Source of the DNA: Psammoneis japonica
Lineage: Eukaryota
Length of the DNA: 64,000 nucleotides
Direction of reading: 5' to 3'
Assembly (NCBI GenBank): GCA_008632985.1
Contig: QPGO01000107.1
Span: 1-64,000, forward strand
Position 1 is the stretch's first letter. The number at the start of each line of letters is the position of its first letter. Shown in pieces: positions 2,611-51,057 of this stretch. The notes under the pieces were generated by a model, which ran no database searches, was not told where the DNA came from, and was given only the letters and a program-made list of their open reading frames with translations. Made by a program: the position numbers and the translations under genes.

Positions 2611-2629
2611 CTCGTTCTTCGAGCATAGT

Positions 2630-3402
2630 GCACATGCGACCACGCGTGCAAGTCCCGCGCAATTGGTCTTCGGACGCGATGCGGTTTTGTCTGTTGCCCA
2701 TCGCGCTGAGTGGAAGCACACAGAAACCAGAAAGCAGAAGCTTGTCCACTTAAACAACAAGCGTGAAAATCAGAAATGCAAGGAGCATCAACGTGCCGCA
2801 GGGCAATTGGTGCTTGTCAAACAGGAACAATCCTCTAAATGCGGTTCTGACAGCTGTGCAGGACCCGCCAGAGTTGTCTGTGTGTGTGACAACGGCACGT
2901 TGCGTGTCCAGAACGGAGCGCTGACAGATGCGCGTGATCTACGGCAGATTGTGCCCTGTCGCCAGCAAGACATCCTGTCACTTAACGGCCCTGATCATGG
3001 GGGAGTGTGCAGCATGCCTCGCTGCTGGACAACACGGCCAGACCGTGCATGAGCCTCTTGCACGTGGCAACGCAGCGTTGTCAACACGCACCTGGGAAGC
3101 ACGACCACAGGAGGGCGTGGCTCCAGGTCTTGGGCAATTCCAGAAGGATGCTAAGAGAGCGTCCGTGTGAAGCACACTGGCCCGTCGTCTGGCCCACGAT
3201 GGCAGCGTGATTCCACACGATGGCATCACTCGTGCATGGCGCGTGATGGCTTGATTCGCACGATCCATGGTGCGAACGCACGATCGATTTAATGCGATCC
3301 AAATGCGAACAAACAGGGATTTGGCAAGATTCCCCATTTGCATGATCCCATTTTCTCTGCTCTAAACTGGCTCATAATTTTCACAACGACAAAGTCGCAA
3401 CA
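2630..3402 (+). mobile_element. 3' fragment of a second Ty3/gypsy element (integrase C-terminus, PPT, 3' LTR), TpA-converted
   Basis: SPAQLVFGRD...NNKREN...GP..V..V.DNGTLR is a gypsy integrase tail. PPT GGGGGAGTG is followed by TGCAGCATG at 3008; probable LTR end ...GCAACA near 3402. Tyr replaced by Cys/His. Confidence 0.75.
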
Positions 3403-10849: not shown

Positions 10850-11290
10850 TGTCACAAAGTTGCCAATCTCCATTCTTGTCCAGCGGGCACTTGCTGGAGA
10901 AGACCTGAGACCAGTGTGACTTGGGAGGAACATCAAGATTTGAGAGATCTGCAAAAAGAAGACAATCAAACAAGTCCTGCAGCTGAAGAAAAAAGTCACA
11001 CACAGGGATTCCAGGAGACAGCTCTTGTGGTTTGTCATTTTCAAATTGGCAAGCAATGGACAAAGACTCAAGGGGTCTTGCTTTGGCACCACCCAGAGTG
11101 ACAATGCTGGGAAACATTGACCCAGCTTTGAAATGAAAGTGTGAGAAGAGGGGTTTGTTGGTTGGCAACCCACCACATGAGAGCTCCTCTTGCACAGCTC
11201 TGAGAAATTCATTGATCGCACTGATTGGGACACCCTGGGAGCAACAGCACAGATTCAATGTGCAGACCACAGAGATGGTTTTGCTGTTGT
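10850..11290 (-). pseudogene. Possible Plavaka/CMC-like transposase fragment
   Basis: GVPISAINEFL...PVCDFFLQLQDLFD..LFADLSNL..P...W...NGDW loosely resembles the N-terminal part of such transposases. Weak, by eye only. Confidence 0.25.
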
Positions 11291-13459
11291 GAACTTCAGG
11301 GATGATGAGATCCTCATCAGTGGAAAGGGGCTTGACTCAATCCAGTGCAGCAAAAGAACCTGGGTCAACAACAGTGGCAACCCCCTTGGCAACAAAAGGA
11401 GACACACCATCATCAAATGATTTGGAAACAAATTCTTCATTGTCCAAGTGCTGGCATTCTGAAACATCATTGGTGCCTGGCCAAACGGCAGTGCCATGAG
11501 AAGGATGTGACTCTTGCACTTGCATGACAGCACAGTTGGATCTCAATGCCCAGGGATTGTGCTGCAAGTGAACTTGTGGAGCGGATGAAGTGTCAGTCAG
11601 AGTGAGACAAACCAACCCCTGTTGCAACCATTTCAATGGGAGGGGGGACAAAGGTGGAAGAAGAGGCAATGGCATCACTGGGTTCTTGGGATTCTCCCAT
11701 TGGCAGCTCTTTGCTGTGAGCATCTGTCAATTTGTTTCCTGAAACACCGCAGCTGTGTTGAGAAAAGGAGAGTTTGCAGGGCAAATGAGTTCTGAGGGGA
11801 TGTTGAAGACCAGTTGGAAGAAAACATTTGCCACACATGGGACAATCATTTCCTGCAGCAAAGGAAGGCACCATTGTCCATGTCACAAACAGAGGGAGGT
11901 GGAGATGCATGAGAAGCAAAAATCAACAATGCAAGCCATGCGGTGAAAGCAACACATGGCAGGTGACAAGATTGTTCTGGGCAAGTCAACTTGCGAGTCA
12001 AAGTGCAAGATCATGCAATGAATTGATGCACAAGAGTGGCTGTCTTCACGCCAGTCTGCTGGGCTTGCATCAAGCAAAATGACAATTTAAGATGAATCCA
12101 ACTGACCACAATGACGGATGTTTTGTCATGCTGGCGCACATCTCAGACTTGTGTGCAACCAGATGTGGACCCATTTCTTGAGCACCCAATTTTCTGTGTG
12201 GTGCTGGGTCTGTCTCTGGCACCCCCAGCCCAAGTGGCTGCAGTGGTTTCCATTGGCCCACGCATCCTGTTGACAATGGAGCCAAACTTCCTGCCAAAAT
12301 TCATTTCAGCACCCTCCTTTTTGTTTCTTTTGACAGTTTTTGGTGGCTTGAGATTGCCAAATTTGATGACACAGCTCATCTGCATTTTCCTGCTGCTGCC
12401 TTTCTTGTTTTTGCACCTGGTTTTGATGCCAGCTGCTGGCTTTCCTCTTCATTTTTTTTTAAAGTTGCTCCTCTTCCTGGGTTTTGCTGGTCGTTTTCTT
12501 GCTCAGTTCTTTGCCTCTCTTGCACTCTTGCTTTCCATGGCTGTGTGGATTTGGCAGTGCAATCATCCTGGCTGCTGTTCTCATGCTTGTCCTTTTTTCT
12601 TGTGGGATCAACTTGCAGCAGAATGGGTTTCATGTTGACATCTTTGGCATCACATTGGTGTCTTTGGCATGTCAGCACCCTTGACAGAGGAGTTGTCAAC
12701 AAAGAATTTGTTGACAAGAGCTTGACTTGAAATCATGTTTTTTTGTTTGCATTTTTTGGGAAGTTGGTTTCATCTTGTGTGGCAGCCTTCTTGCAAGGTG
12801 AGCTGGTGCTGCCATCAGAGGTCACAATGGTGAAAACCTTGCAGTTTTCCCACACAGGAATGAACTGGATTGTCATGGTCAAACCATGCCCAAAAGACAG
12901 GTTCAAGAAGGCAAGGCACTCTGTGCTTCGCGGCACTTGCCCCATTGCCAGTTCCATCCTGGATGACCCCTGAAACAAGCTTCTGTTGCACTTGACTGAG
13001 CACTGGAGGTGTGGGTCAGATGGCACCGGCCCAGCTGGCAAAGGAGTGACAGCACTTTAAAGTTGGATTTTTTTGTGTTGGAAAAGCCTCAGCCAAGCAG
13101 CAAAAGCCCAGTGGCATGACAGCTCAGCAGAACTTCCACAGTGCTTTGACATTTCTCACATTTGTGCCAAAACTTGGCTTCATGGTGGGCCTGCCTTCCT
13201 CAACTCAACCCTCCTCTCTGCTCACATGCTGGCTTGGTTCAACAGCATGGTGGAGCAGTCACCTTCATGTGTGCTTGAGATCTTCTTGGATGAGTTGAAG
13301 AGTGGGGGCATGAGCACTTGGTCAAAGCTCAAGCACTGGCAAGTGACAGCATGCAAAAGACCCTTTGGTCACTCACCTCCCACAAACCACAGCTGCTTCT
13401 GTGTCAGCGAGTTCTTGGGTGAGGACAAGATGATGCACTCCAGCCATGAGTGGGGCTGT

Positions 13460-13730
13460 GTGTGACATTGAGAGCCCACTGATTCTGTGCACAAGCTCCA
13501 CAGCAAAACAACCAAGCAATGAATGCGCGGGCAGTTGCCAACAGAAAAAGAGGCAATTTTGTGATCATGTCTCCCAACCCACACACTCAAAGTTTGTCAT
13601 TTCCTTCCACCAATGTTGAAGAACACACCTGGCCCAGTTTTGTTCTCACAAATGTGGAAAACAGAAAGCCTTTTTTGTCTTTGCAAAGCAGGGAGCACGA
13701 AACATTTTTGTGGAAAATCACATGTGAAAA
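13460..13730 (-). repeat. Decayed homologue of the segment at about 53050-53330
   Basis: Shared GCCAACAGAAAAAGAGGCAATTTTG (25 bp identical), TTGAAGAACACACC and ACAGAAAGCCTTT in the same order; shared peptide KIASFSVG. Confidence 0.75.
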
Positions 13731-14448
13731 TCATTCGCAACATGTGACGTGATCCAAAAAACTCTTTGTGCCACAGTGCAGTGGCACAAGGTTCTGCCTG
13801 GAGCTGGAATGCATCACAGATGGCACCTGCCATGAAGGGCAGTTGTGCAGTTGGACAAGAGTGCTTGGGGGAAATCTGCTCTTTCAAGACATCCATGGTT
13901 TCTTGGTTTGGCAAAAACTGCACACCCAAGCAAGTGGAGAAGACCAGCATTGTGCACCAAGCCACTCATTTGCAAGCAAAGGTGAGGTGATTCAAAGAAG
14001 TTGGCAGCACCTCCAGGCTGCAAAGAGAGTTGCTGTGTGAGAACAAAGAGTGCTCTCTGAGCAGAAAATGAAAACACAAAATCAGCCATTTTTCGTGCAT
14101 GTGAGAAAGTGACAGCACAACACATGTGAGGGCCTTGCTTGACATTGAAAAAGCTGGAGAGTGCAAATGCACAGTGATGTTTTGTTTGTCACCTTGATGG
14201 TGTGTGCCTCCTTTTTGTTGGTGATGTTCAGAGCACATGTCGTGCCACAAAGCTCCAGCTTGTCCAGGGGCCCTTCGCTGGATTTGGAGCCATGGGGTGT
14301 GGAGAGAGCAGCATTTCTTGCCAGCTGCAGCACCCCCTTGTTGCTCAGCTGTGCACACCAAAGTGCAGCATGGCTGTGAGTTGTGTGTGCTGTGTCGGGT
14401 GCTGGCTTTGCTGTTGCAGCTGTGCCACATTAAAAAAAGACGTCGATG

Positions 14449-19763: not shown

Positions 19764-20179
19764 ATTTGCTCCCTTGTGTCACAAATGCAGTAAATGAAGC
19801 AATTTCAGATGCGTGGATGATGTTTAATTCGCGCGATTTTGTTTTTTGGAACGCGCACTCGCCGAAAATCTCATCCATGAACAGATGTGGAGAGGAACTA
19901 AATCTCAACCTTTGACAATGCAGGTTGTCATGAATTGCTGTCACAAATGGACCAACAATGCCACACCCTTGGAGCAAATCTCCACCTTGGAGCAAATCTC
20001 CACCGGTGGAGATTTGCTCCCAACAAGCAAATGCACGTGGTGTGCTTTGCGCAGATTCTGCGCGACATGACATTTTCGTGCTGTGTTCATTGCATTGTCA
20101 CAAAATTGCATGACACGTCACACAGCAGAGCAAATCTCCACCCATGGAGATTTGCTCCCCTGGTGGTTGAAGGGTTGAG

Positions 20180-21935
20180 CTTTGCTCGGAATCAGTTCCT
20201 GACTTCTCAGCAAGGCTGTTGAACAACAAAAGAGCAGATTTTCTTTCTCTCTCCACTGAAGCTTTGGACTCCCACATGCATGTCGCAAATGCCACGAAGG
20301 CGCGGATGCAATCATCTGAGAAATGGAAATGCATTCGCAATTCTGGACAACTGAAAGTCGTTCCCATTCGTCCCCAACCTGATCCTGTCAACTCTAAAGC
20401 TTGGTGTCGTGCACCAAGACACATTTAGACGACATGCTCGTGACCATTTTGTCCTTCCTCTGCCCCTTTTTTTGCCAGTTTTTGCGTCTCATTACGACCA
20501 TGTTTGGACACCATTCCAAGATGGACACCGACAAAGACCAAGAGGAGCCCAACAACATGCACCCTTCCACATGGTTTGGCAAATGGAAGAAAGCTGAGCA
20601 CGATTGTGACAATCTTTCGGGCATTCGTCAGCAAAGCACCGGCAACTCCACCATGATCACAAATCACTGTGAGATGGCAGCGCAATCCAAAACATGCGCA
20701 CCAACCCTGAAGAGCAAGCACTTTCAACACAAGCGGGTTCTCTCTGCAGAAGCTGACTCCGTTTTGCAATTCACCGGAAGCCAACGTGTGGCAGGTGAGG
20801 ATGAAAGCCATGCACAAGTTTGACAAAAACACCATGTCTGCCGTCAAACTTTTGCTTGTTGTGGCAATTTTTCTTGCAGGTTGGGCACAACAGAATCAAG
20901 GCAGGTTGAAAGAAGGAGCAACAAAGGTCCGACATGTGCTGTCGACATTTCATTTGAGCTGGTGCTTTTTCCTGGGGATTCTGCGAATGAGAGCAAGAAA
21001 AACCCAGCGCACATGATGAGCCCAACAACGTGCTCAATTGTGGAGTGCCTCCGTCCTGTGAAACAAACTCCCAAGGCCATTGCAGGGATCGCGGTGTAAA
21101 CCCTTTCAGTTGGCAAAACCACAGCATGCTGCAGTGCTTGGCACAAAATTGCGCACGCACTTCACCGTGTTAAAAAATGGCAACCACGGCGAAAGCACGA
21201 AGGAAAGAGACAATCTGTTGTCTGCCCTGTTTAACGCTGGGATGTGTCTTGACTGTGCAAACTGATTGAATGGACATGCTTGACAATGCACAATCATTTT
21301 CCACCAAAGGAACACTTTGTCAGTTGTTCAGAGTCTCACAAAGCATCGCTGGTTAATTGCCAGTGATTTGCGCAGCAATTTGGCGAGCGACTCACCGCAC
21401 TTTGCCGTTGTGAAACAAGGATTGTCCAAAATTTTCGATTTGACATCTCCAGCAGCAAAAGTTTTGAGCTGCACAACCTTTTCATGTGTCAAGCAACAGT
21501 TGTGTGACATCAAACCGCTTGCATTGCTCATGTGGACGTTCTCCACCCCTCAAACTTTTCACCGCACTTTCATCACGTAACTTTGATTTGCAACACGGTG
21601 AAGTGTTGACACAGAATTCTGCGCAGTTTGTGTGCAGCATGTTGTGGTGGCACATCTGCCTCCTGCAGGGCGTCAGACAGAAGGTCGCTCGAAAATGAGA
21701 CCACCCAAAATCACAATGCTGACTTCTGCTGAGAGTCATGAACCAACCAAAATTAAACGCATCAAAACGAAATGCTCTTTCTTGGAATGCATCGTGTCCA
21801 ACATGGCCCAGAAACACACCAATGACCAAGAATGGAAGGGTTTGACTTTTGTCATCATTTGCTTCTGCTGCACCTTCTTTGACTGGCCTTGTTGTTGACA
21901 GCACAGTCAAGCAATCACGCCATGATGATGCGACC
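20180..21935 (-). pseudogene. Mutated duplicate of the nucleotide-sugar transporter gene at 25675-26778
   Basis: Colinear with about 25445-26732. Carries a frameshift, a deletion at GGA microhomology near 21088, an insertion, and systematic TA-to-TG/CA changes. Confidence 0.93.
21098..21648. mobile_element. About 550-bp MITE-like insertion within the transporter pseudogene
   Basis: Interrupts the alignment to the intact gene. Begins AAACCCTT; ACCACAGCATGCTGCA near the left end is an inverted match to TGCAGCATGTTGTGGT at the right end. Confidence 0.55.
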
Positions 21936-23835
21936 GACCACAACAAAAATGGGCAACATGCCACGGCACATTCATGCCCCATTTGTGATGGCTTTTGTCC
22001 ATCAATCACAACACTGTTCAATGTGTTGACAATGTTGATTGAACGGGATCTGTGGCACAAAATGCAAGATGAAATGTGGTTGCACATGTGCAGAATGCCA
22101 GTGCAATTGAGTCATCAGTCGTTGGTTTTTCGTCGTGCAGCCACAGATGCAAGCCACAAGGTGCACAGCAAAGGCTGGGAAAAGCAGAAGCACGCACAGC
22201 TGACAACAACAATGTGGTGGATTGAATGATCTCCCTCATGTTCTTCCAATTTGCACATCTCATGTGCAGAATGAAGGGGGTCATTTGGATCACTCTTTTG
22301 TCATGCATTCAGAAAGGCAAGCCATGAGGTGTCTGGTGTGAAGGATGAGGCAAAAGCAGAATTGCACATGGTTGACAAAAACATGGCAGATTGATTGACA
22401 ATGTTCGCTCTTCTCTTTGACCCATCTCATGTGCAGAATTCCTTTTTGTGTCATGTGGTCACAAATGATGCAAACCACAATGGCTCTAGAGCAAAGCCAA
22501 GGCAAAAACAGAGCCGCACATGAGCAATGTCAACATTTGTGACCCAATGGCAAAGTTCATTCTTCCCTTGCTCTGCCACAAGGGGGTGCTTTGTGTTGAT
22601 TTGTCGATGCATCCGTCATGGTTGGCGGCGGCAGAGCATGGCTTCATTTCCATTCATTCTGGTTGAATGTGGAAAAAGGCACACCCACCCTCACAAAACA
22701 AGACAGGAATTGCCACGCTGCACTCATTTTTTGTTCCTTCCCCTGACCCCTTTCAGTCGTTCCTTCCTGCCAAATTATCCTCATTTCCCGGGCATTCCCA
22801 AAAGGGCAAGGCAATTGCCCCTTGCCCTTGCCATTTTGGGGAATCCCCAAACGGGCAAAACCAAGCCAAGCACTGTGCCTGTTCCACGCAAACCTTGGCA
22901 CACAACGCACAAACCTGGGCTTCCATGGTTCCTCAAATGCCTCACTGCAGCTGGCCCACAACACAGCACACACCTCAGCTGTGACCAAACCAACATCCTT
23001 GCATCCATTGCCAGCACCTCTTCCCTTCCTGACCTGTCCCCTGCCAGTGCCACTGCCCTGTGCCAAGCCCCACCCTTCCTCAATCACCCCACTGACAACC
23101 CAGCTCTCTCTCCTGAAATCACCACTGGCCACAAATTTTTTGGCCAATGAGTTGGCAGCACCAACTTTGCTTGCACCTTTTTGGAACAAAAGGCCACCAC
23201 TGTCTGCATCAACCTCGGTGCCATCTCTCACTCCACCTCCACAACATCCAAGCCAAGAGCTTCCTGTGCCACACCTGCTGGTGTGCCACATCTCTTTCTT
23301 CCTCCTTCCTGCATGGCCCAAGAAAAACTGCACTGCCTGCACCAATGCCCAACTCTCTCCATCTGGCCTTTTTCCCACGCCACAGCTTCCTGGACCACCA
23401 TCACCCTCCACCAGATCCGGCCTCAGCGCCCAACATCAAGCCACTGCTCCCAACCAATGATGCGAGTGGGGCCTTCAAAGCCTCAGCCTCACCATCACCA
23501 AATCTCTCACTGACCAACTCCTGTGCCACTCCACCAAACTTCACACCCAACTTGCTGATCCCACTTAAAACCCTCACGTTCCCTGCTGCCCACATGACGC
23601 CGTGCCGTGCCGGCCGTTTCGCCCCATCACGCCGTCTGTGCACCACACCGCACCACTGGCAGGTGACGTTGCACTCGAACTCCTCATGAGCGACACGCGG
23701 TACCGGCGGTACCGTAGATTAGTCATGTTTTCCACCTTGTTCCACCCATCAACGATCAACGAAAACCCCTCCCACTTTCATTGTCCATCGTAATCCAGCC
23801 AAGATGTCAAGTGAGCGAAAGATCCAGTTGAAGAA

Positions 23836-24786: not shown

Positions 24787-25674
24787 AGAGTCGTCTTGGC
24801 AGAAAAATATTCGGCATATTTGGGACTGAGTATTCATTGATTTAAGCATTTCTGATTCAAAAACAACAAGTACCCAACGTCACCTCGAACAACAATGACG
24901 ATGCTACAAAGATATGTGACGAAGTCAGCAGGTGAATTTGATGCAGAGACAAGAAATTTCCCGAGAAGAAATTTGCTGTTCCATAGTGGATTCATTCAAG
25001 TTGTGTTGCCACTCTCTAGATTAAATACCGAAGTGGTTGGAGGTTTTGTAAAACTTGTGCAAGAATCGGCGCATCGACCGCTGGATAATAAGTTAGGGCC
25101 CTAGTGCTCTCAACAATTGTCTGTCAAAGTATGTTGTGTGCGACAGAACTTGGCTTAAATTCTTGCGCTGCTTTACTTTCATAGAAAATGTAGAGATGAG
25201 CTGTCGCATAACGTCTTCTTGATGCTGCAAGGTAAGTAATAAACTTTCGAGAGGACCCAATCCTCCCTGTTCGATAGTACAAGTACGGTACCGCTGTTAA
25301 CCTCTATTTTATTATGGAAGAATGCAAAAAATTCCGAGAACACCAGGCTCGACAAATTCTTATCGAAGTCGAAGCAGCTCGTGGAACGAAAGGAAGCTCT
25401 CTCTGCATTGGAATCTCAAATTACCAGAGCAAACATGTACGTCAGCGTTGCTCGGAATCAGTTCCACCTCGCAACATGGCGGGTGAGTAACAAAGGAAGA
25501 GCGTTTCTCTCTCTCTCTCTCTCTGAAGGTTTGGGCTCCCAGGTATGTCGCAAACACCACGAAGGCGCGGAGGTAGTCAATTGAGAACTGGAAATGTATT
25601 CGTAAGTCCGCTCCCATCCATCCCCAACCTGATCCCACTAACTCTAAAGCTTGATATCGTGCACAAATATACTT

Positions 25675-26778
25675 TTAGACGACATGCTCGTGACCATTTT
25701 GTCCCTCCTCTGCTCCATTTTTCGACAGTTGCGTCTTACGACTACCATGTTTGGATACTATTCCAAGATAGACACCAATAAAGACCAAGAGGAGCCCAAC
25801 AACATGCATCCTTCTACATGGTTTGGCAAATAGAAGAAAGCTAAGCACGATTGTGACAATCTTTCGGGCATTCGTCAGCAAAACACCGGCAACACCACCA
25901 TGATCACGAATCACTGTGAGATAGCAGCGCAAACCAAAATATGCGCATCCACCCTGAAGAGCGAGCACTTTCAACACAAGCGGGTTCTCTCTGCAGAAGC
26001 TAACTCCGTCTTGCAATTCACCGGAAGCCAACGTATAGCAGGTGAGGATGAAAGCCATGCACAAGTTTGACAAAAACACCATGTCTACCGTCCGAACTTT
26101 TGCTTGTTGTAGCAATTTTTCTTGCAGGTTGGGTACAACAGAATCGAGGCAGGTTGAAAGAAGGAGCAACAAAGGTCCGATATATGCTGTCGACATTTCA
26201 TTTGAGCTGGTGCTTTTTCCTAGGGATTCTGCGATTGAGAGTAAGAAAAGCCCAGCGCACATGATGAGCCCGGCAACGTACTCAATCGCGGAGTGCCTCC
26301 GCCCTGTGAAACAAACTCCCAAGGCCATTGTAGGGACAAGTTTGCATGACTTAAATGCGACTTTTACTGGATAAGAAGTGTACCGGATCGCGGTATTGCC
26401 AGAACCGTGCGATGCTGCGACACAACTTCCGACAATCAGCAATAGAATACCGGTACGTCTGCCTCCTGGAGGGCGTCGGGCAGAAGGTCGCTCGAAAATG
26501 AGACCACCCAAAATCATAATGCTGACTTCTGCTAGAGTCATGAACCAACCAAAGTCAAACCCATCAAAACGAAATACTCTTTCTTGGAACGCGTCGTGCC
26601 CAACATAGCCCAGAAACATACCGATGACCGAGAAAAGAAGGGTTTGACTTTTATCATTGTTTGCTTCTACACCTTCTTTGACTGGACTCTGTATTGACAG
26701 TGTAGACAAGCAATCGCGCCACAATGATGCGATTTTTAAGCGGAGGAGCACCCACCACTGTACTGCCGGACTCCCCAT
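25675..26778 (-). CDS. Nucleotide-sugar/PAPS transporter (UAA, SLC35B family)
   Basis: Multi-pass hydrophobic 367-aa ORF with YPVKVAFKSCKLVPTM, NLQEKL and TNARKIVTIVLSFLLF motifs. Confidence 0.88.
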   Translation of the reverse strand: MGSPAVQWWVLLRLKIASLWRDCLSTLSIQSPVKEGVEANNDKSQTLLFSVIGMFLGYVGHDAFQERVFRFDGFDFGWFMTLAEVSIMILGGLIFERPSARRPPGGRRTGILLLIVGSCVAASHGSGNTAIRYTSYPVKVAFKSCKLVPTMALGVCFTGRRHSAIEYVAGLIMCAGLFLLSIAESLGKSTSSNEMSTAYIGPLLLLLSTCLDSVVPNLQEKLLQQAKVRTVDMVFLSNLCMAFILTCYTLASGELQDGVSFCRENPLVLKVLALQGGCAYFGLRCYLTVIRDHGGVAGVLLTNARKIVTIVLSFLLFAKPCRRMHVVGLLLVFIGVYLGIVSKHGSRKTQLSKNGAEEGQNGHEHVV

Positions 26779-27458
26779 CGTTGTATTTCACTTCTCGTTG
26801 TTCTCACCTCGCGATCTTTGTGAACCAGTGGGCTCTGAATTAGTGCTTTTCGAATCGTCGCCTTCTTGGCTGTCGATTTGTTTCGCAAAAAAAAACTGAA
26901 AGCGTTACGTCCGATGCCCGCAACAATGAGAACCAAAACAACAAAATGATATCAAGAATGCGGAAGTGTCATTGGCACACAGAAAAGAAGTGACACTTTT
27001 ACTTCACCGCGCCGTTGAGTTTTGGGGGACGTCTTCGGAAGTGAGACTGTCGAAGAAAGTTACGTAGATTTTGTACTAAAACAGTCTGTCATCAGTGCGA
27101 TTGGTATTTGGACCTCTGACAGATCCTACGTGTTTTTTTTGCGTACAAATTGTACTGGAAAACCCAAACGCACTGGCGATCAGACCCTTCGACGATCTCA
27201 CTTCCAAAGACGCCCCCAGTTTCCGTTTTCGTTTTTTTTTGAAAAAAAGATCGTCTGTCATTCGCGCGCTAGCGATCCTATCGTTGTTGAAGTTTCGACA
27301 GTACATTTTGTACGTAGATTTCTACGTATCGTTTGACGTCATCGGCGGGAAGTTCTGTTCCTTCCTCCGCCTCATCCCTCATCATTCATCCATCGTCCCC
27401 TCCGCGTGTCACCTCACAAAAGGCAACCAGGACGGAAAGAACTAAACCAGAAGTGACA

Positions 27459-28888
<1,430 letters not shown>

Positions 28889-28930
28889 TGAGATTGTTTA
28901 CGTGGATGTAGGTTCTATCTTGCTACCTAT

Positions 28931-29379
28931 CTAGAGAGACTCTATGTAGTTCTAGCTAGCTTGTGACTCGAGATACCAAAGAGGATAGACACTGTGTCAA
29001 ATTCATCCAGCACGCAAGAAGGAAAAATGTGATGATTCGAAAGATGAGGATAGAGTGACGAGAAAGAAGAACATTGATTGTTACTTTTTGGTGCCGTCTC
29101 CGCTTCAAATGCTTAGTACCGGTAGCAAGATCTACAGCTACAAAAACAACAGACCTCTAGAGAGACTCTATGTAGTTCTAGCTAGCTTGTGACTCGAGAT
29201 ACCTGAGAGGATAGACACTGTGTCAAATTCATCCAGCACGCAAGAAGGAAAAATGTGATGATTCGAAAGATCAGGATAGAGTGACGAGAAAGAAGAACAT
29301 TGATTGTTACTTTTTGGTGCCGTCTCCGCTTCAAATGCTTAGTACCGGTAGCAAGATCTACAGCTACAAAAACAACAGA
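28931..29379. repeat. Tandem duplication, 226-bp period, two near-identical copies
   Basis: CTAGAGAGACTCTATGTAGTTCTAGCTAGC...CAAAAACAACAGA starts at both 28931 and 29157. Confidence 0.92.
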
Positions 29380-41540: not shown

Positions 41541-42862
41541 GTTCGTGGCCGGTTAAAGGAAAAGAGAAAAAAAGAGGGGATTCGACCGTTGAACACACAC
41601 ACAATTGACCATGCAACCAGGGCCAGAGTTGCACTGGCTTCTTTTGGTCCAGGGTGGTTGCTGCAGGTGCAAAGAGATGTGACACTGAGTGTGTGCCACC
41701 AAGCTGAGCAGCCCAGCTTGGGTGTCAGCCAAGCCCTGCCAGGCCAGCTGCCCTGGCTCCAGCTCTGCTCTTCCCAGTGTGCGCGAATTGTTGAAGGAGC
41801 ACCACATTGACTCAAAGGCTGTGTTTTGAGTGGGGTAGAGAGAAAAAAATGTCATCTTGACTGGTGCTTGCTTCAGACCCTGCATCATGAGTGCAAGCTC
41901 CTCTTGAGAAATGAGCAAGAACAGCCATTTTTGGTGCCTCTCTTTGGCTGCCCACTTGGCATTGCCAACAAATCTTGAGCCGAACTTCGCTCACAGTTTC
42001 TTCACTCTTCAACCACAAAAGCAGGTTCAACTTTTTCTTTGTGACCGGGGTTGCTGTTGCAGACACAAATGGTGGGCACATGCCATGTGGCTGCTTGGCG
42101 ACAAGAATGTGATGCCAAGCATGTGATGCTGCACACCAAGGAGCCAAGCAGCCCAGCTCAGCTTTGAATGGAGCCCCAGGACAGCAGCCAACTCTGGGTG
42201 ATTTCAGCATGGTTTGCTTGTTCAAGCTGTGCTGCACTCACCCCACAATGCTCTGTGTTGTGGTGGCTTCTTGTTGCAAGCCATGGCTGAGTCAGCAGCC
42301 AGCCAGGGCCCATCTTGCAAAGGCCACACACACATGTTGACCCTGTGCAAAGCTGTGTGAGGGGCCAGGCGCAGGAATTTGAAACAATGGCTTCACAGCC
42401 ATTGGCCCCAAGTTGTCATTTGGTTGGGAGCCATTGCTGAGGGGCTGTGAAGTGTGGGGTTGCGAGCCCAGCCAGGAGCTCACACTCTGTCACAAAGTGC
42501 TGCCACAGCTGTCTTTGCATTGCAGCCAGCCAGGTGTGGTTGACCCCAAGTTGGCACTTGATTTAGAGTGACTGTCAAGGAGCTGTGAAGTGTGGGGTTG
42601 GGCAGTCCAGCCAGCTCACACTCTTTGCTGACAGCAGAAAGAGCTGTCGCAGCTGTCCTTGCATTGTGGTGCCAGCCAGGTGCACACATGGCCAGAGCAG
42701 CCTTGGCACATCCCGCTGACAAAGCTGGCAAAGATGGCGACTCTTGTGGTTGAGCCACCCAGCATGCAGGAGGTCTGGGCACACTCCTGGGAAGTCAAAT
42801 GGGAAGGAGGGCTCAGCATTGCCGCCAGTGGCCGTGCCAGGCACAAATGTCAGCTTGTCTTG

Positions 42863-43139
42863 TGACAGAAAATTGAAGGCAAATGGCAAGAATTCAAACA
42901 ATGACTCCTTGCTGCTGTCTAAATGGCAGATGAGTCTCCGCTCAGAGACCGTTGCAGGAGCCGAAAGACATGCAAGTCGGCACAATCGGGCTGCTGTTGT
43001 TGTTCTTGTGAGCCTTGTGGCTCGAAAGCAAACTACATCGCGCGTGAACGCGCGGAACTAAAGCACACAAAACTGTGCACGGCAAACTAAACAGCGCGCG
43101 ACACTTCGCGCGCACCCAAATCCTGTTCAAATCCTGTCA
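42863..43139 (-). repeat. Copia 3' LTR (277 bp)
   Basis: Direct repeat of 49703-49980 with TG...CA termini. Confidence 0.95.
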
Positions 43140-46100
43140 CTCCCCAGTTTGCTTGAGGAGCCACAGAAACAGATTCAACTTCGGATGGAATGAAGTTCCA
43201 GAACATGAGGGGGCGGAGAAGGTCCCAGATTTGGGAGCAACCCCAATGCTTGCTGAGAATGTCAGCAGGGTTGCGGGAGCCTTCGATGAAGTGGAACTCA
43301 AGGTGGCCAGAGGCAATTGCCTCACGCACACGGTGGAACGACAGTGCGGTGTGTCGCTTGTGTAACTTGGAGTGCGGGATGGTGGCACTGTCTACAACCG
43401 ACTTGTTGTCACCGAACATGCAACTAACGTTACGGATCGGGACGCCAAGGTGGCGCAGGGTGATGCGCAGGTCGACAATCTGCTCAACACAAGTCCTTGC
43501 GGCAACAAATTCAGACCCGCAGGTCGCAGTCTCCACGGTGGCTTGTTTCTTAGAGAACCAATCAGCCGGGAATTTGTTGAGGAAGTGGAGCATTCCCATG
43601 ACAGAGCGTCCGGTGAGCATGCAATGGTGCAAGTTTGCATCGACGCAGTGGGTGGCAGTGACGAACTTGCCAAGGGGCGGTGGAGCATCCTTCAGGATCA
43701 TCTCTTCTGCTTCACCATGCACGGAATGCATCCATTCATAGGCCGGAGCAGGGAGATCCGAATGGTCGGGCTCTTCCGTGCGAACGCGGAGAGCACCGTG
43801 TCGCATCTTGGAGAGGTGCCCACAGACGCGTTTGGCACGATCCAAGTGGCCTTGACGGGGCGCAGCTCGGAAGCTAGAGAGTGACATGACGGCCGTGGTG
43901 ATGTCAATTCGACCAAGGGACACTGCCCATTGGAGTGAACCAACAAGAGACTGGAACTTGTGAATGCCATCGGGTCCCAGCAGTTCGGAAGTGTCCAGTT
44001 CGGGGTGGTCACCCTTCTCTAGAGGTGACAGGGCGTTGGTGGCAGGTTTCTCCCCAAACAGTCGGGCACAGCTGTCGACCATGCGCTCGATGTACTTGCG
44101 CGGAGACAGGCACAAGGTTCCGTCAGGTTCCCGGGAAAAGTCGCAACCCAGATGGAACTCAATGGGTCCCGCACCCTTGAGCTTGAACTTGTGCTTTTCC
44201 GTGAGAGTGTCGACGAAAGATTGAGGGTCCTTCATGGCAATGGCGAGGTCATCCACACAAACGGCAATGCATTCACAGTGGTCGCCGTTCCTGCGCATCC
44301 AAATGTCGGGTTCGGCGCGGCAGGGGAAGAAGCCTTCAGCTCGCAGGCAGTCGGCGAAGCGCTCGTGCCAGCGGAGACCGGAGCTGCGCAGTCCATGCAG
44401 TGCCTTGTGGATGACAAGGATGTGTCCTTCGAGTTTGCCGAACTGGGGTCCAGCTGCAATGTAAAGCTTCTCCTTGGTGGTGGCTTCAAGGCAGGCATTG
44501 CCAATGTCGGTGGCCCATGTCTCCAACTCGTTGAGTTCGGCCAGGAAAATCATCAGCCGAAGGCCACGGAGGGAGACTGCTCCGGAGCAGACACTGTCGA
44601 CAGGTACGTCCGTGAGGTGCCCGTCGGCTACGAGTCATGCCTTGTGGCGACCGTCGTGTTTCACGTCGCACACCAGGTGCACTCGGATCTTCTTGTGTCC
44701 CGCAGGAGGAGTGGAAGACTTGAAGGGCCCGCAGTCATGGAAGACTTCGCATTCGTCGAGTTGGTCCATCTCGAGATTAGTTGCGTCTCCCCACTTGCGG
44801 TTGCCGTTGCGTTCGTCTGGTGACATGGCGTGTTTGCAGTTCCGGGGAACTTCGCATCCACACTTGCAGCGAGGTGCAGTGCGGAAGGAGCGAAGCTTGG
44901 CTTGGTTGGCCATGCGAAACAGCTTCTTTTGGCACCTCGCGATGGTGCGGAACCGCTTCCAGCCATCCGTGTCGAGGAGTCCGTTCTCTCGTGCACAGAT
45001 GGCACAGGTGACGGGGTCATCCTTGGCGATGATGGCAAGAGGCTCGGACGTGATCTCCCCACTTTCCCATTCAAGCATGATGTTGTAGCTGGAGCCTTTC
45101 CAGGTTGGGTGGTGAGGCTTCAGAGGTCCTTCGTGTGACACGATGCGTCGAAATTTCCAAACAGTGGTGTCTTCATCTTCTTGCTCAATGTGATTCATGA
45201 TGTCATTGCAGGCAAGGACTTCCTCGCACTCGTCATTGTTGACAGAGCAGACGAACTTAGTGAGCTCGGGATTGCCGTTCACTTTCCATTCGTGGTCTTC
45301 GACGGCCTTGACGATGCGAGCTCTGTGGCGTTGTCCGTCCTCTTGTGGCTGCATGAGGAAGGTGCGTCCAATGATGTCTTGCGGATCGAAAACTGGCATC
45401 TTGGGTGTCCTGATCTCCCCATCAGGAGAGTCGACGGGGTTGTCGTCATGGCGAGATTTGATGATGGGTTCAGGTGGCTCCCCATCAGGAGGATCAAGAT
45501 GCAGGTTTCGAACGGCAGGATCGGGGGTAGCGGAGCGGACGTTGGACCGGCAGAGGATCTTCTGAGTCTCGTCAGATAGAATCTTGAAGGTCATCTGGTG
45601 GCCGACGTGCTCAGCAATGCCAACGAAGCATCCACGCAACTCACGGGATTCGGACGGCCAATCGGAGTCATCGAGGTGGAAGCACACGGGTTCCCACCAG
45701 TGAAAGCGAAGCAATGGGCTGATGTCCGGGGTGGAGCCAGTGAGAGTCTCGAGGGGCGTGCGCCAGTGGAGACGTGGGGACGCTGCATGGTTGAGCATGA
45801 AGCACACGCACATGAGCGCCAGCAGCCATGTGTGGGCGGGCGAACCAAAACGATCCATGACAGTGTTCGCCATGCACTTCACGGTCTGGCATCGACGCTC
45901 GGCAAAGTTTTGGTGTTGCTGGTGAGGCTCACTTTGCCAGCTAGAGATGAAGAGGGCGCGTAGGATCCCGAGCACTTTGTTGCTGATCTCAACTTGAGCA
46001 CGGTCTCTAATGAGTTTGGATGGGGCACCACGTTCACGGATCTGATCCTCGAGTGTGTTGACAAACTCTTTGTCCGTCTCAGTGCCGCAGACGTCAGTGA

Positions 46101-48756
46101 CGGTAGACTCGGTGCCAACAAACAGTTGGGCGCTGGTGCAACCAGAGTCGACGGCCGGGGTGTCGGCACAAACGGTGTCAGTGGCGACAGGCTCGTTGCG
46201 GCGGTGCACGTTAAGGGCGGGGTTGGGTGATTTGTAGGCTTTGCGAAGGTGTGTGCCGGCGGGCATGCGGGCGTGCTGCGTGGTGCAGTCAAAAGTACGA
46301 CGGACCGCATCGGCAGGTGGGAAGCCAAAGTGAGGCCGAAGAGACTCGAAGGGGGGGTCCTTGGGCTGTACAGTGCGCTCCGGAGGTGGAACGTCATCGC
46401 CCTGGGGGCCAATCGCATGCAGATGACACTCGTAGAACACGTCGTCGTTCGGAAGGAGGTGATCATCGAGGGCGGACGCGTGATCGGCAGACAAGGAAGC
46501 GGACATGATGGTCTCGTTGACAACGACACGATGACGGCAGTTGCCGCATTCGTCAAACAGGTTGGCAGTGGGATCGTCCTGTGGGTCAGAGATCGCGTCG
46601 CACCACTGGTCGTCGTCAGTGACAGAGTGATCGAGGACGGAAGGGTCCCATGTGTGATCACCGGTGAGGATGACATGGGGCAGGGTGTCCCATTCGGCGT
46701 CAGTGTAAGGTCGCATGGCAACACAAGGCAGGCCAGCCTTGATGTCAATGGGGGTGACACAGCCATCAGGAGTGGCAATGCGTTGCAAGCCGTTGGGCAC
46801 CTTGACAGAGCGATCGTTGACATCCTGTTTGCACCATTCAAGCTGGCCACAGGAATGGATGGTCTTGCCCTTGCCCGTGCATGCGCACTGATGGAGGATG
46901 GCAATGACGGGACCACGCTGGGTCTCAATGACGGCACCAGCGGTGACAATGGGGATGTCCACCAATTGATGATCGTCAATGCCCTGAACGTCGACTTGGC
47001 GAGAGGTGCGTGCAATGACGCGAACGTCGTCGCCAGCAATGCTGCCGTTGGCCCCACGATCGACTAGAGCGCCAGTGCGTGTGGAGCGATGAGCAGAGGC
47101 AGAGCAAATGACATTGTGGTTGTCAACGCGGCGGCAAGTGCGGCCGTTAAGTTCCATGTCATCTGCAGAAGCTGGCGGGGTAGAGGAAGCGGCGGATGGC
47201 CCCGGTCGACTGGCATTGGGGGCTTGGTTAGGAGACAACAGACGTTGCAGATCACCGGGTGGCAGTGGCTTGCGCTTGGTGAGGTGCGCCAGGATGGGAT
47301 CATCCGAAGTGGCGTCCACATGTGGAGCGGAGTCACCAGAGTCAGCAGGAGTCGTGTTGGACAAGTTGACATCACCGTCACTCCCAAGGCGTTGGTCGTG
47401 AAGGTTGGCCGTAACAGACTCATGGCAGTTGCTGGCTCGCGGGTTGCGGGGAGGTGGACGAGAATGCTCAAGGATGATCGCCTTGGAGGAATCGGGCAAC
47501 GAATCCCAGAGCCGTTGGTGGTCGGGAGGGAGACGTCTCCATTGGACACCGGTGAGGCTGGGACCGCGGGTGCAGGCAGCATTGGCTTGAAGGACGTCAA
47601 CGTCGCTGTCAATGTCGTAGAACACATCGTCGGACGGTTCCTCGGAGCAGACGTCGTGTGCGTGTGTGGCGCGTCGGGGAGCTCGAGGTGTCGTCTTGGG
47701 TTGAAACGTGCTGTCGCACTGAGCTGCCGCGGAGAGGAGCAAGCCACAGCATTGATCGCATGTGAGGCTCTTGCCACTCTGCGTACGATGCTGATCAGCT
47801 TGGTTCTTGACAGCACGGAGTTCCTCGACAGGGTGCACAGCATTCTCGAGCATGACGCGCTTCTGTCCTTCAGAGAAGTGGTCACTGGCCGGGATGAGTG
47901 CCTCGCACTTGCGCAACTGATCTTGCCAATGAAGGATGAACCCGTGGGTCGGACCTTTCCAAGTGCCATCACCAAGACGCTCGGTGGTGAGGTGCGTGAG
48001 CAGGGTGGAGGACTCGACAGATGCGTGGGTGGAGGCAAGCGCGCACTCAGACAAGGAGCGGCAGACAGTCTGTGCGTCAGAAGACCCCACATTTTCGCGA
48101 ATGAGAGCCTTGCCCTTGTCGGTGAGAAGGATGCGTTCGAAGACGGCGAACATGTGCTTTTGCTGTTCAGCAAAGAGCAGTTTGTCTTCGGGGCTGGTCG
48201 GTTTGTACGACGAGTCTAGAATGCACTCGACGTCTTGGGCACGGGCTTGTGCCACAAGTGAGGTGTGCCAAGTGTGCCACTGCTTGTCGGATTTGAGAGC
48301 CGTGAAAGTGGTGGGATCACGCTTGATGCCTCGCTTGAAGTCCCGCACCGGGTCGCGTGCCTTGGTCGGGTTGGTGACATGTGGAGGTGCAAGGGGTGAG
48401 CTGCCGATGGACACAGAAGACATGCAGTCGGGGCTGAGGCGGCAGGCAAGGAACTCGTCATGCGTGAACAAAGAGGAGTCGTTGGCAACGTCAAGACCTT
48501 TGTGTGCTTTGACAATGTGCAGACTGACCAGTGCTGCTAACATGTTCTCACAACCACGGGGCAAAGGGATCACATTGGCGCCGTTGTCGCACTCAAGCGA
48601 GTCGATTTGGGACGGCATGAACGTGGACAGTTCCTGACGCGAGTCCGTGCCGTCTTGGGCCAAAGCCAAACGAAGAGGACTCCCAGCACCTTGGGCAAGC
48701 ACGGTTCCAACCACGTGCTCGAAACCATCGGTTTGTTGCTGACGAGTGAGAACCAT
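43087..48756 (-). pseudogene. Copia gag-pol polyprotein, single frame with one internal stop, TpA-converted
   Basis: Protease LVDRGANG; integrase VATDT, RDRAQ, QNFAER; RT VKHDGRHKA*LVADG, DIGNAC, KALHGL, AVCVDDL; RNase H CVDA, GSEF, GDN, NPADILSK. The TGA at 44635-44637 is probably from CGA. Confidence 0.93.
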
Positions 48757-49702
48757 GGCAGACAAAAGTGGTGTCAGGATGATCAATTCTGGTTGGGAAG
48801 CGAAGGTGGACTCGAAACTTGGGTGAGAACAGACTTGACTTGAAACAGACTTGACTTGAAATCTTGAACTGTCTTAAAATCAGAAGTCGCCGGGCTTTGT
48901 CATCCCGTTCGTTGTCAAGTGCTAAACTTCCCATCCGGTCCGTAGAGTTGTGCCGGCACGTCCGAACCCGCAGCCAGTGGCGCTTTGGGTTGCTTGCGAG
49001 CGGAGCAGCGGGTTGCAAACCCCTGCAGGTGAGCTGACCAGAGGTGGACAAGACCCCCGAACCGTTCTTATTTTTTACATCGGTTGGATTTCCCGATCAG
49101 GCTGGCCAGTTGATGCAGGCGTCAGGCGCTGTGGACGAACGAACAAACGCGGGAAAGCACCCTCGCCCCAACGTGGGGCTGCAATCACGGCTGCTTGCTC
49201 TCACAGTCGTCCTCGTGGACCTGGTGGAACTGTGGAGCACCAGCAGTCCAGGGTAGATCAGGTGCAATGGACTCGGTGTGCTTGTAGAGTGGCAGCAAAA
49301 CCGCAGTCCGAAGAGTGGGTGCAGGTTCTTGGCCGTGAAGACATGTGTGTATGTGCACACATGTCTTCAGCGACGAAGATCCTTGAACATGTAGGGTTCT
49401 TGACCGTTAACCGATGAACAGGTATGTCAAGGGATGAGGATCAAGGACAGACTTGGATGTGACCGTTGAATGTATGTCTTCAGCGATCAAAGGCAGCACA
49501 ATCAATCCAGACATCCAGCGGTGAGGAGACTTGACGGTGACGTCAACTTCCTGCCGATGCCCTGGCATTGAATGCGCGCAGACTTGCCGATGTATGTAGA
49601 GTGTATACGGAGGTCCACGTAGAATTGAAATAGCGTCGTTGGTAAATCAACGACGACGATGGCGGTTGCTCAATGGGTTGACAATGAGCAAGACTGTCAA
49701 TC

Positions 49703-49980
49703 TGACAGAAAAATTGAAGGCAAATGGCAAGAATTCAAACAATGACTCCTTGCTGCTGTCTAAATGGCAGATGAGTCTCCGCTCAGAGACCGTTGCAGGA
49801 GCCGAAAGACGTGTAAGTCGGTATAATCGGGCTGCTGTTATTGTTCTTGTGAGCCTTGTGGCTCGAAAGCAAACTACATCGCGCGTGAACGCGCGGAACT
49901 AAAGCACACAAAACTGTGCACGGTAAACTAAACAGCGCGCGATGCTTCGCGCGCACCTAAATCCTGTTCAAATCCTGTCA
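49703..49980 (-). repeat. Copia 5' LTR (278 bp)
   Basis: Direct repeat of 42863-43139. Confidence 0.95.
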
Positions 49981-51057
49981 TCTTGAGAGAGATTTGAGCC
50001 CACACAGCCCCGAGTTGGGTGTCTTGGCTGGCAAGTTAGAAAGCATTCTTGAGCACATTTTGGGATGTGGGCAGCACTGTCACCAAGAGAGCTGTTCTGC
50101 AGAGGAAGAGGGAAACAGGCAACAACATTTTGCAAGAGCTGTTTTTGTGTCAATGGTCGGGTGGGATGGGGCAGCATCTGGACTTTGACGGAGCATTTGG
50201 TGGACAAAGCTTGAGCACAGAGAGCTGTCCACTCAAGCTCCACAAGTGGCACATTTCAAAGGTGACACCAATGTGTTCATGCATCAACATGCCTCAAGCT
50301 GCAAGTCACACAAAAAACCACCACCAACCTTTCTCAACCAACCACCATCATGGACAGAACAGGTCAAGAGGCTCGAAACAAGAGTGATTGCTTCATTGAC
50401 TCTCTTCTTGTTTCATGCATTCAAGAGCTTGTTCTTGTCCTTCTCAAATGTTTGTTGTGCATTGTTGTCTCTTTTAATTCAAGTGCAAAGAGGAGTCACT
50501 TTTCTTGTTTCTGTCTCTTGAGATGTTGTTGGTTGTTGAGTGATGCAATTTTTGTTGCTTGTCACATTTTTGGAAATGTTGGCAAACCCGATCACTGCTT
50601 GATTGTCAACCCATTTGCTGTTTTAAGTCTCCATGGCACAAAACACCATAATTCCAGAGCCCTCAATTGTTTCATCAAACGCAGTGCTTTGAAACACGTC
50701 CAACATCAACTCGACTCAGTTGAAATCCCAGTTTGTGGGCGATGAAAAATCACGAATGTCAAACAAATGGCTGCTTTCGACATCAAGATCCCCGAGTTCA
50801 ATCCAAATGTGACGGCACGCCTCACAGCTCATGGCCATGACACACACAAGCATGCCTTGTTGTTGTCATCGCGTGTGCTCGCATCGAAAATGCCGATGGA
50901 TCAAAGTTCAGGAAAAGGATGGAATGCAAATTCATTTGTGCATTCACTGGAGTGGCATTGGCGTAATGACATTCACGGCAGAAGCGATCAAAAATCCTCA
51001 CTCATCATTGACATTTCTGCATTGCTCAGAATTTGAAATCTGACCACCACCGTCAAG

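Follow-up and report, generated by a model that had tools for sequence, protein, structure and literature searches.

A copia-type long terminal repeat (LTR) retrotransposon in the genome of the diatom Psammoneis japonica, inserted into an older repeat, has very probably been hypermutated from TpA to CpA or TpG at the DNA level after its integration. The element spans 7,118 bp (42863–49980, minus strand) of the stretch analyzed here, the first 64,000 nucleotides of contig QPGO01000107.1 (assembly GCA_008632985.1), hereafter called the window. According to our analysis, the changes are transitions at TpA that run from TA to CA or TG; they affect both strands, occupy sharply bounded domains and, in the element, are later than the insertion. 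The novelty that a preliminary description of this DNA had assumed is lower, since a preprint of 2026 on Bigelowiella natans already shows the process directly (Mettrop et al., bioRxiv 10.64898/2026.01.13.699255). The process as such has therefore been described before, from another lineage, and the new points are its host group and target class, the degree of saturation, the hierarchy of site contexts and the LTR-based timing.

The element, its insertion and its LTR pair

The two LTRs are direct repeats with TG..CA ends, are 96.4% alike and have TCTTG at both flanks. The open frame P0002 matches the Pfam family RVT_2 (PF07727; E = 3.2e-18, 66.7 bits, cut-off 31.6), which is carried by all 120 listed homologues. 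As the open reading frames and the RVT_2 match are on the minus strand, the right-hand LTR is the 5' LTR of the element. The parts of the element and its borders are as follows:

42858–42862, no strand: target-site duplication TCTTG, left copy, same as 49981–49985 and present as a single copy in the empty-site paralogue contig
42863–43139, minus: 3' LTR, 277 bp, TG..CA ends; the converted copy, with 4 TA left and 8 of 9 inferred changes
43140–43148, minus: polypurine-like tract abutting the 3' LTR, ACTGGGGAG in element orientation, with the purine run GGGGAG
43087–44634, minus: open frame P0002, 515 aa, copia-type reverse transcriptase and RNase H region (Pfam RVT_2 match)
44635–44637, minus: in-frame TGA splitting the polyprotein between P0001 and P0002
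44635–48873, minus: open frame P0001, 1412 aa, gag-like and presumed protease/integrase part, ending at the TGA
49061–49702, minus: leader (5' untranslated region), within the unconverted island; used in the TA class counts
49703–49980, minus: 5' LTR, 278 bp; the near-unconverted copy, with 10 TA left and at most 1 inferred change
49981–49985, no strand: target-site duplication TCTTG, right copy, same as the left one

For P0001, no Pfam family was found at E ≤ 0.001 or at E ≤ 5, and no integrase among the PDB sequences, so that the integrase expected upstream of the reverse transcriptase in Ty1/copia elements was not seen in these searches; heavy Tyr>Cys/His damage (see below) may mask its domain. 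The only stop inside the polyprotein is the TGA at 44635–44637, where 96% of the family read depth has CGA. This stop is a CpG>TpG change, private to the window copy or to a minority of copies, and lies outside the TpA process. Within the 64-kb window, no second copy of the LTR or of the element was found.

The insertion and its target duplication are confirmed by a paralogous empty site, a 641-bp contig of run X2 (42442–42857 and 49981–50224) that joins 42857 to 49981 with a single TCTTG, and whose left arm differs from the window by 24 letters and 29 gap positions. As this contig represents a host-repeat paralogue that lacks the copia element, the insertion target was itself repeated sequence. 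In the TA- and CpG-depleted flank left of the insertion (42402–42682), tandem-like units with a spacing of ~138 bp and a 61-nt core 75–79% alike were observed.

The two LTRs differ by nine bases, all of them transitions, with no transversions, and by one indel in an A run. At six sites (42973, 42981, 42983, 42999, 43083, and 43117), the left copy (3' LTR) has CA or TG where the right copy (5' LTR) has TA. The differing bases are:

42973, 42981, 42983, 43083, 43117: left C, right T
42999: left G, right A
42970 A, 49811 G: CA left, CG right
43102–43103 CA, 49943–49944 TG: adjacent pair, both bases differ

The preliminary description had reported the same picture, namely eight substitution sites (nine bases) with one A indel, no transversions, one CG/CA and one TG/CA site, and six TA sites placed in the 5' LTR, a placement that is right in element orientation. 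With TpA bases occupying 7.2% of the right LTR, the chance that at least six of nine differences fall on them is P = 1e-5; if all transitions creating or abolishing a TpA are counted (22% of positions), it is P = 0.006. As a control, the LTR pair (537 bp) of L001, the closest of the relatives encoded in metagenomic contigs, has 20 differences, 2 of which are TA-type. Seven end-repeat pairs were found among these relatives: five are 100% identical contig-end overlaps of 103–127 bp and are uninformative, and the pair of L009 has four differences, none TA-type.

In the 3' LTR, 6 of 10 TA are converted, as against 0 of 10 in the 5' LTR (Fisher P = 0.011), and the other 256 LTR positions have no changes, which corresponds to a rate ratio of at least ~150. 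The element is thus young and yet largely converted, as the preliminary description had claimed. Both LTRs of a retrotransposon are copied from one minus-strand template and are hence alike at integration. With an intact target duplication and an empty site, the LTR differences are most simply post-integration, and conversion of the 3' LTR within the chromosome is the simplest reading. The earlier claim that the mutagenesis followed insertion and took place in DNA agrees with the perfect 5-bp target duplication and with the single TCTTG of the empty-site paralogue.

Direction of change in Tyr codons, a host-gene duplicate and relatives

The direction of change can be read from Tyr codons, because TAY>TGY is TA>TG and TAY>CAY is TA>CA. 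At the 26 conserved Tyr columns in the alignment with the 120 listed homologues (55–70% identical, one of them from the diatom Cylindrotheca), the element retains Tyr at 2 and otherwise has Cys (16), His (6), Trp (1), or Phe (1). Its Tyr content is 0.47% vs. 4.59% in the homologues, and its Cys content 3.58% vs. 1.18%. In P0002, Tyr>Cys/His accounts for 13 of the 35 differences at 288 conserved columns, and the catalytic YVDD motif has become CVDD; in P0001, Tyr>Cys changes occupy conserved columns 1222–1375. The density of TA in the reverse-transcriptase region is 8.4 per kb in the element, whereas 28 unconverted relatives have 51.6 ± 13.3 per kb.

The window also contains a polarized control, in the form of a duplicated fragment of a host transporter gene:

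20178–21933, no strand: copy of the host transporter gene fragment, in a TA-poor block; the polarized control
25444–26787, minus: intact parent gene, SLC35B3/UAA-type transporter with a 370-aa frame (25675–26787), in normal DNA; the ancestral state for the control

The named relatives of the transporter are diatoms only (Coscinodiscus wailesii at 55% identity; Skeletonema, Cyclotella, and Stephanodiscus at 45–49%), and no protein identical to it was found in the database. Positions 20178–21088 and 21649–21933 of the duplicate align with 25444–26336 and 26452–26732 of the parent at 87% identity. The 43 TA of the parent gene appear in the duplicate as 21 CA, 18 TG, 2 GA, and 2 TA, with only one reverse change (CA/TG>TA) and no change of TA to CG. 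The absence of TA>CG indicates that one hit ends the susceptibility of a site. Retention in the duplicate is 5% for TpA, 90–95% for CA and TG, and 64% for CpG, with 15 of 55 CpG lost as 11 CA and 4 TG. The parent gene, located ~5 kb from the duplicate, has its 43 TA and its frame intact.

The direction of change is therefore TA>CA/TG, by both the element body and the host-gene duplicate. Once the direction is fixed by these sequences, the inferred changes in the LTR pair split 8:1 between the 3' and the 5' LTR (P = 0.039), which identifies the 3' LTR as the converted copy.

The same differences could in principle be read in the opposite direction, as cytosine deamination of CpA to TpA in the 5' LTR, similar to repeat-induced point (RIP) mutation. 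RIP, the best-known mutator directed at repeats, involves the same dinucleotide pair, and DNMT4 enzymes related to RID are present in some diatoms (PMC9998398). However, this direction is contradicted by the Tyr>Cys/His changes and by 39 TA>CA/TG changes vs. 1 reverse change in the duplicate. Furthermore, the affected DNA is TA-poor and enriched in GC (55–60% in the element vs. 45–49% in nearby genic DNA), its frames are long and open rather than filled with stops, and the functional parent of the duplicated fragment was left untouched. We consider a RIP-like origin hardly credible.

The signature was also found in other sequences. Among 50 metagenomic loci encoding relatives, three have a low observed/expected ratio (O/E) of TpA together with Tyr>Cys/His changes at conserved columns:

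L028, 1–1943: TpA O/E 0.13; Tyr>Cys/His at 13 of 17 columns
L026, 1–1884: TpA O/E 0.27; Tyr>Cys/His at 14 of 17 columns
L012, 1–2759: TpA O/E 0.31; Tyr>Cys/His at 6 of 14 columns

The remaining 47 loci have a TpA O/E of 0.52–1.02, and four of them that were checked retain Tyr at 15–17 of 16–17 columns. Taken together, L028, L026, and L012 indicate that the process is also present in environmental diatom-like genomes beyond the assembly of the window. Among the 120 database homologues, 3 bear the signature (P0085, P0012, and P0072). At the conserved Tyr columns, P0072 has 6 His and no Cys, a one-strand pattern unlike the mix in the window element.

Converted domains, the unconverted island and alternative explanations

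The element is part of a larger pattern. The TpA O/E is 0.0–0.2 in blocks at ~2.9–14.7, 17.5–23.5, and 41.5–64 kb and 0.45–0.9 in genic DNA, and the CpA/TpG O/E in the TpA-depleted blocks is 1.4–1.9. The converted blocks hold 239 TA in 39.2 kb (6.1 per kb), compared with 1028 in 22.3 kb (46.1 per kb) of normal DNA. Their borders adjoin genes and are sharp at 250-bp resolution, and the conversion takes in flanks outside the element and entire multi-element domains. In some stretches (11000–14250, 22250–23500, 42000–42750, and 50000–50750), TpA and CpG are both lost (0–3 each per 250 bp) and the CpA/TpG O/E reaches 1.8–1.9. These doubly depleted blocks presumably form the repeat layer of greatest age, where both decays are complete; the copia element sits inside one of them.

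The left end of the window (1–2900) is an AT-rich repeat remnant (38–44% GC) with normal TpA, which vanishes from ~2.6–2.9 kb onward. Eight frames of the left-hand repeat (0.3–5.6 kb) gave only a sub-threshold RT_RNaseH match in Pfam. The open frame at 2516–3052 crosses the conversion border at ~2.6–2.9 kb, and this suggests that the border lies within one element, which we take to be gypsy-like by its motifs. In normal genic DNA, near a porphobilinogen-synthase-like frame, two adjoining 224-bp copies (28930–29379) are 98.7% identical, and the single N of the window (27712) lies within an open frame.

The fate of a TA site depends on its neighbors. The survival of TA by tetranucleotide, expressed for the converted blocks relative to normal DNA, is as follows:

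ATAT: 0
ATAC: 0
ATAG: 0.04
ATAA: 0.09
GTAC: 0.09
CTAC: 0.16
GTAA: 0.27
CTAA: 0.31
CTAG: 0.38
TTAA: 0.40

The hierarchy is RTAY over YTAR (R, purine; Y, pyrimidine) and is partly confounded by the differing ancestry of repeats and genes. The LTR pair follows it: of the fast-class TA, which number three per LTR, the 3' copy has lost every one to conversion and the 5' copy has kept every one, and each of the four TA common to the pair is a CTA site of the slow class. If TA was the ancestor of the CA/TG double site, this site would have been ATAC, the fastest class. Fast-class sites make up 12 of the 26 TA remaining at 49061–49980 and 2 of the 44 left elsewhere in the element (Fisher P = 5e-5). 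The 5' LTR and ~630 bp of leader are an unconverted island inside the converted domain.

Both strands are used, as seen from the two outcomes in the duplicate (21 CA and 18 TG) and in the Tyr codons (16 Cys and 6 His). No strand-coordinated clustering was found by runs tests (P = 0.17, n = 39; P = 0.45, n = 22). The idea of the 3' neighbor deciding the strand found no support in the duplicate, in which RTAR sites gave CA and TG at 8:6 and YTAY sites at 3:3.

The family is very abundant, with 14,778 contigs aligned to the element. For family variants, reads and contigs of four runs were aligned to the element; 40 of 529 variant places were listed, of which 31 lie in the element and 9 outside were dropped. 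In run X1, 433 places are transitions and 75 transversions, and 26 of the 31 listed element rows are transitions, 25 of them toggling among TA, CG, CA, and TG. Among these rows, the window has CA/TG where 82–100% of the family depth has TA at 44258, 44819, and 49544, has TA where 81% has TG at 43426, and at five sites shows TG in place of the CA of other copies. Such copy-to-copy differences indicate that the conversions are largely independent and were not inherited from a converted master. No RNA data set was among the runs listed as containing the sequence.

Several points weigh against hypermutation of the integrated element. The direction of change at the nine LTR sites is taken from other sequences (Tyr codons, the gene duplicate, and relatives) and not from copies of the same family, as none of the listed family variants lies within the LTRs. 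All runs containing the sequence come from one sample, possibly the assembly's own data, and are not independent confirmation. The AT-rich repeat at 1–2.6 kb is wholly unconverted, which means that repeat status alone is insufficient for attack. In the element, sense-strand A>G is in excess at 3:1 (21:7, P = 0.0125, Tyr codons and LTR sites pooled; 5:1 for the LTR changes by themselves), and this ratio, set against 21:18 in the duplicate, makes a strand- or transcription-linked component possible. The polarity of the element, with the 5' LTR and leader spared and the body and 3' LTR hit, would also fit editing before integration. Finally, the island could have arisen by gene conversion, or by a switch of the assembly from one copy of this very abundant family to another, and the longest listed X2–X4 contigs over it differ from the window by 5–7%.

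If gene conversion or patch repair produced the island, the element would have arrived converted in both LTRs, mobilized in trans from a mutated master, and its 5' LTR and leader would have been overwritten later; the LTR pair would then not date the mutagenesis. The unconverted part is one contiguous tract of ~900 bp that reaches the outer edge of the 5' LTR, and the size of the family means that donor copies exist. This history is nevertheless improbable, considering that the conversions at the three TA positions and five TG/CA sites given above vary by copy, against a converted master, and that the island itself holds at least one private TA>CA change (49544). In addition, a copy whose polyprotein has CVDD and is broken by a stop is unable to supply its own enzymes, and the host-gene duplicate shows chromosomal action regardless.

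Editing before integration would require a deaminase acting on the RNA genome or on single-stranded cDNA, in the way that APOBEC3G edits the cDNA of human immunodeficiency virus during reverse transcription, and would leave a gradient that is low at the 5' end and high at the 3' end, with the early-copied 5' LTR spared. The polarity and the strand excess speak for it. On the other side, editing of RNA leaves the LTRs identical, whereas here six TA sites differ, and editing of minus-strand cDNA predicts sense T>C only, whereas sense A>G dominates and both occur. In the host-gene duplicate the two strands are hit equally, conversion extends to flanks outside the element and over multi-element domains as a whole, and the hits lack strand-coordinated clustering. 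Resident single-copy DNA is also hit in culture in B. natans, according to the preprint text (Mettrop et al., 2026). We therefore regard this route as very unlikely, and the argument of the preliminary description against RNA editing before reverse transcription holds, with both strands being hit.

A technical origin has a similarly low probability. It would involve either a TpA base modification misread in repeats or two copies stitched together at ~49.06 kb, and is favored by the highly repeated family, the single sample behind all sequence holders and the divergence of the X2–X4 contigs over the island. A misread palindromic site, however, should yield CG and mixed TA, while the 43 sites of the parent gene gave 0 CG and 2 TA. 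The loose ends at 49074 are a T-run indel and a CA/TG alternative, not a break, and the target duplication is perfect. Moreover, 3 of 50 contigs from other metagenomes bear the signature, and in B. natans the process was shown by Illumina sequencing of mutation-accumulation lines, as far as the preprint text describes them (Mettrop et al., 2026).

Proposed mechanism and comparison with known systems

In the proposed sequence of events, the copia element was inserted into an older repeat, and TpA was afterwards changed to CpA or TpG (A:T>G:C, on either strand) over most of its length, including the 3' LTR and ending ~630 bp short of the 5' LTR. The substrate is chromosomal double-stranded DNA in sharply bounded, repeat-rich domains, with RTAY favored over YTAR. 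The pace is at least ~150 times that of background substitution and above that of the co-occurring CpG decay, through many independent hits on the duplex and not one pass over RNA or single-stranded cDNA. As a result of the loss of TAA/TAG stops and Tyr codons, long open but dead frames and a raised GC content are left.

As for the chemistry, we see an even chance that adenine 3' of T is deaminated by an ADAT/TadA-like enzyme, as proposed for B. natans. This idea rests on the 5' U or T preference typical of adenosine deaminases and on the U33–A34 logic of tRNA. Alternatively, a thymine-directed modification could mispair with G; since TpA is palindromic, A>G and T>C are indistinguishable from sequence alone. 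GC-biased gene conversion and selection against UpA were rejected, given that dead sequence is affected, and within it TpA alone.

A second lineage after the chlorarachniophyte, the only one reported so far, implies that the process is widespread, affecting LTR retrotransposons, a host-gene duplicate and 3 of 50 environmental relatives, and that the repeat compartment of an ecologically dominant algal group is shaped by TpA hypermutation. LTR pairs allow the process to be dated and rated without experiments. At the same time, the LTR divergence found here is almost all hypermutation and not clock-like substitution, so that LTR-based insertion dating will be misled, as will gene prediction and protein databases by open frames with Cys or His for Tyr. 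Genetically tractable diatom species exist, which makes the hunt for a deaminase or a targeting pathway directly testable.

We tentatively suggest, with a probability somewhat short of even, that diatoms, and perhaps the stramenopiles, alveolates and rhizarians generally, have a dedicated, domain-targeted DNA editing defense that acts on duplex (R)TA(Y), changes a single A:T pair of the two to G:C and is a GC-increasing mirror of fungal RIP. If so, transposons would be killed through the loss of Tyr codons, TATA-like and other TA-containing signals, with their frames left open. That the 5' LTR and leader were spared would then reflect the way domains are marked, through chromatin state or RNA guidance and not sequence, and if the Bigelowiella system has a common origin with this defense, the mechanism of genome immunity would be an old one among eukaryotes.

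Among known systems, the RIP of ascomycete fungi resembles the diatom process as a DNA-level, transition-only mutator of repeats that involves the CpA/TpA pair, inactivates transposons and can be read from comparisons of LTRs or duplicates. However, RIP makes TpA, AT-rich DNA and stops, whereas the diatom process removes TpA and stops and raises GC. RIP also mutates both copies of a duplication, while in the diatom the intact gene copy 5 kb away is spared and at least one repeat of the window is untouched.

Editing of retroelements by APOBEC3 or ADAR takes place before integration, is strand-polar and leaves the two LTRs alike. It has in common with the diatom changes the deaminase-type transition hypermutation of retroelements, and the 5' T/U preference fits adenosine deaminases. 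It differs in that the diatom LTRs are not alike, both strands are hit and non-retroelement DNA is affected.

The deamination of methylated CpG also feeds CpA and TpG and is seen beside the TpA process, in the CG/CA site of the LTRs, in the TGA derived from CGA and in the 15 of 55 CpG lost from the duplicate. Diatom transposable elements carry CpG methylation (PMC9998398). The decay of CpG is nevertheless separate and slower, with 64% of CpG but 5% of TpA retained in the duplicate, and many metagenomic relatives are CpG-poor yet TpA-normal (L007, L010, L038, and L049 among others).

The closest counterpart is the process in B. natans. According to the preprint text, 231 of 302 new nuclear mutations in mutation-accumulation lines fell in two integrated viral regions, and 230 of these 231 were A>G or T>C, all at TpA, at a rate ~1000 times that of the rest of the genome (Mettrop et al., 2026). 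The same text describes TpA-poor, CpA+TpG-rich clusters enriched for reverse-transcriptase and transposase domains, proposes an ADAT2-like adenine deaminase and, in its Discussion, attributes a 5' U/T neighbor preference to ADAR and adenosine deaminases. In the text of the preprint, supplements aside, the words "diatom," "LTR," and "retrotransposon" are absent. Our full-text literature search for TpA hypermutation in diatoms found no report and returned only this preprint; action on LTR elements, depletion close to saturation and a preference for RTAY were likewise absent from its results.

The two lineages share, as far as the preprint text describes the B. natans case, a spectrum of almost only A>G/T>C, all at TpA, with TpG or CpA as the outcome by strand, and a confinement to foreign regions with a normal rate elsewhere, leaving TpA low and CpA+TpG high as its long-term trace. 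In spectrum, in the use of both strands and in regional confinement, the diatom process agrees with every testable defining feature of that in B. natans. The differences concern the host, a chlorarachniophyte (rhizarian) on the one hand and a diatom (stramenopile) on the other, and the targets, which in the B. natans text are integrated viral DNA and in the diatom comprise LTR retrotransposons, islands of nested repeats and the duplicate of a host gene. The B. natans process was followed by direct mutation accumulation, while that of the diatom is known here by comparison of an LTR pair and a gene duplicate. The tetranucleotide hierarchy, with RTAY fastest, the sharp borders within an element and the timing by LTRs are additions from the diatom. 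Finally, the TpA O/E of 0.0–0.2 in the diatom is near saturation, whereas the text gives 0.45 for the region of nucleocytoplasmic large DNA virus origin in B. natans. Overall, TA-specific hypermutation also acts on chromosomal repeat DNA in diatoms.

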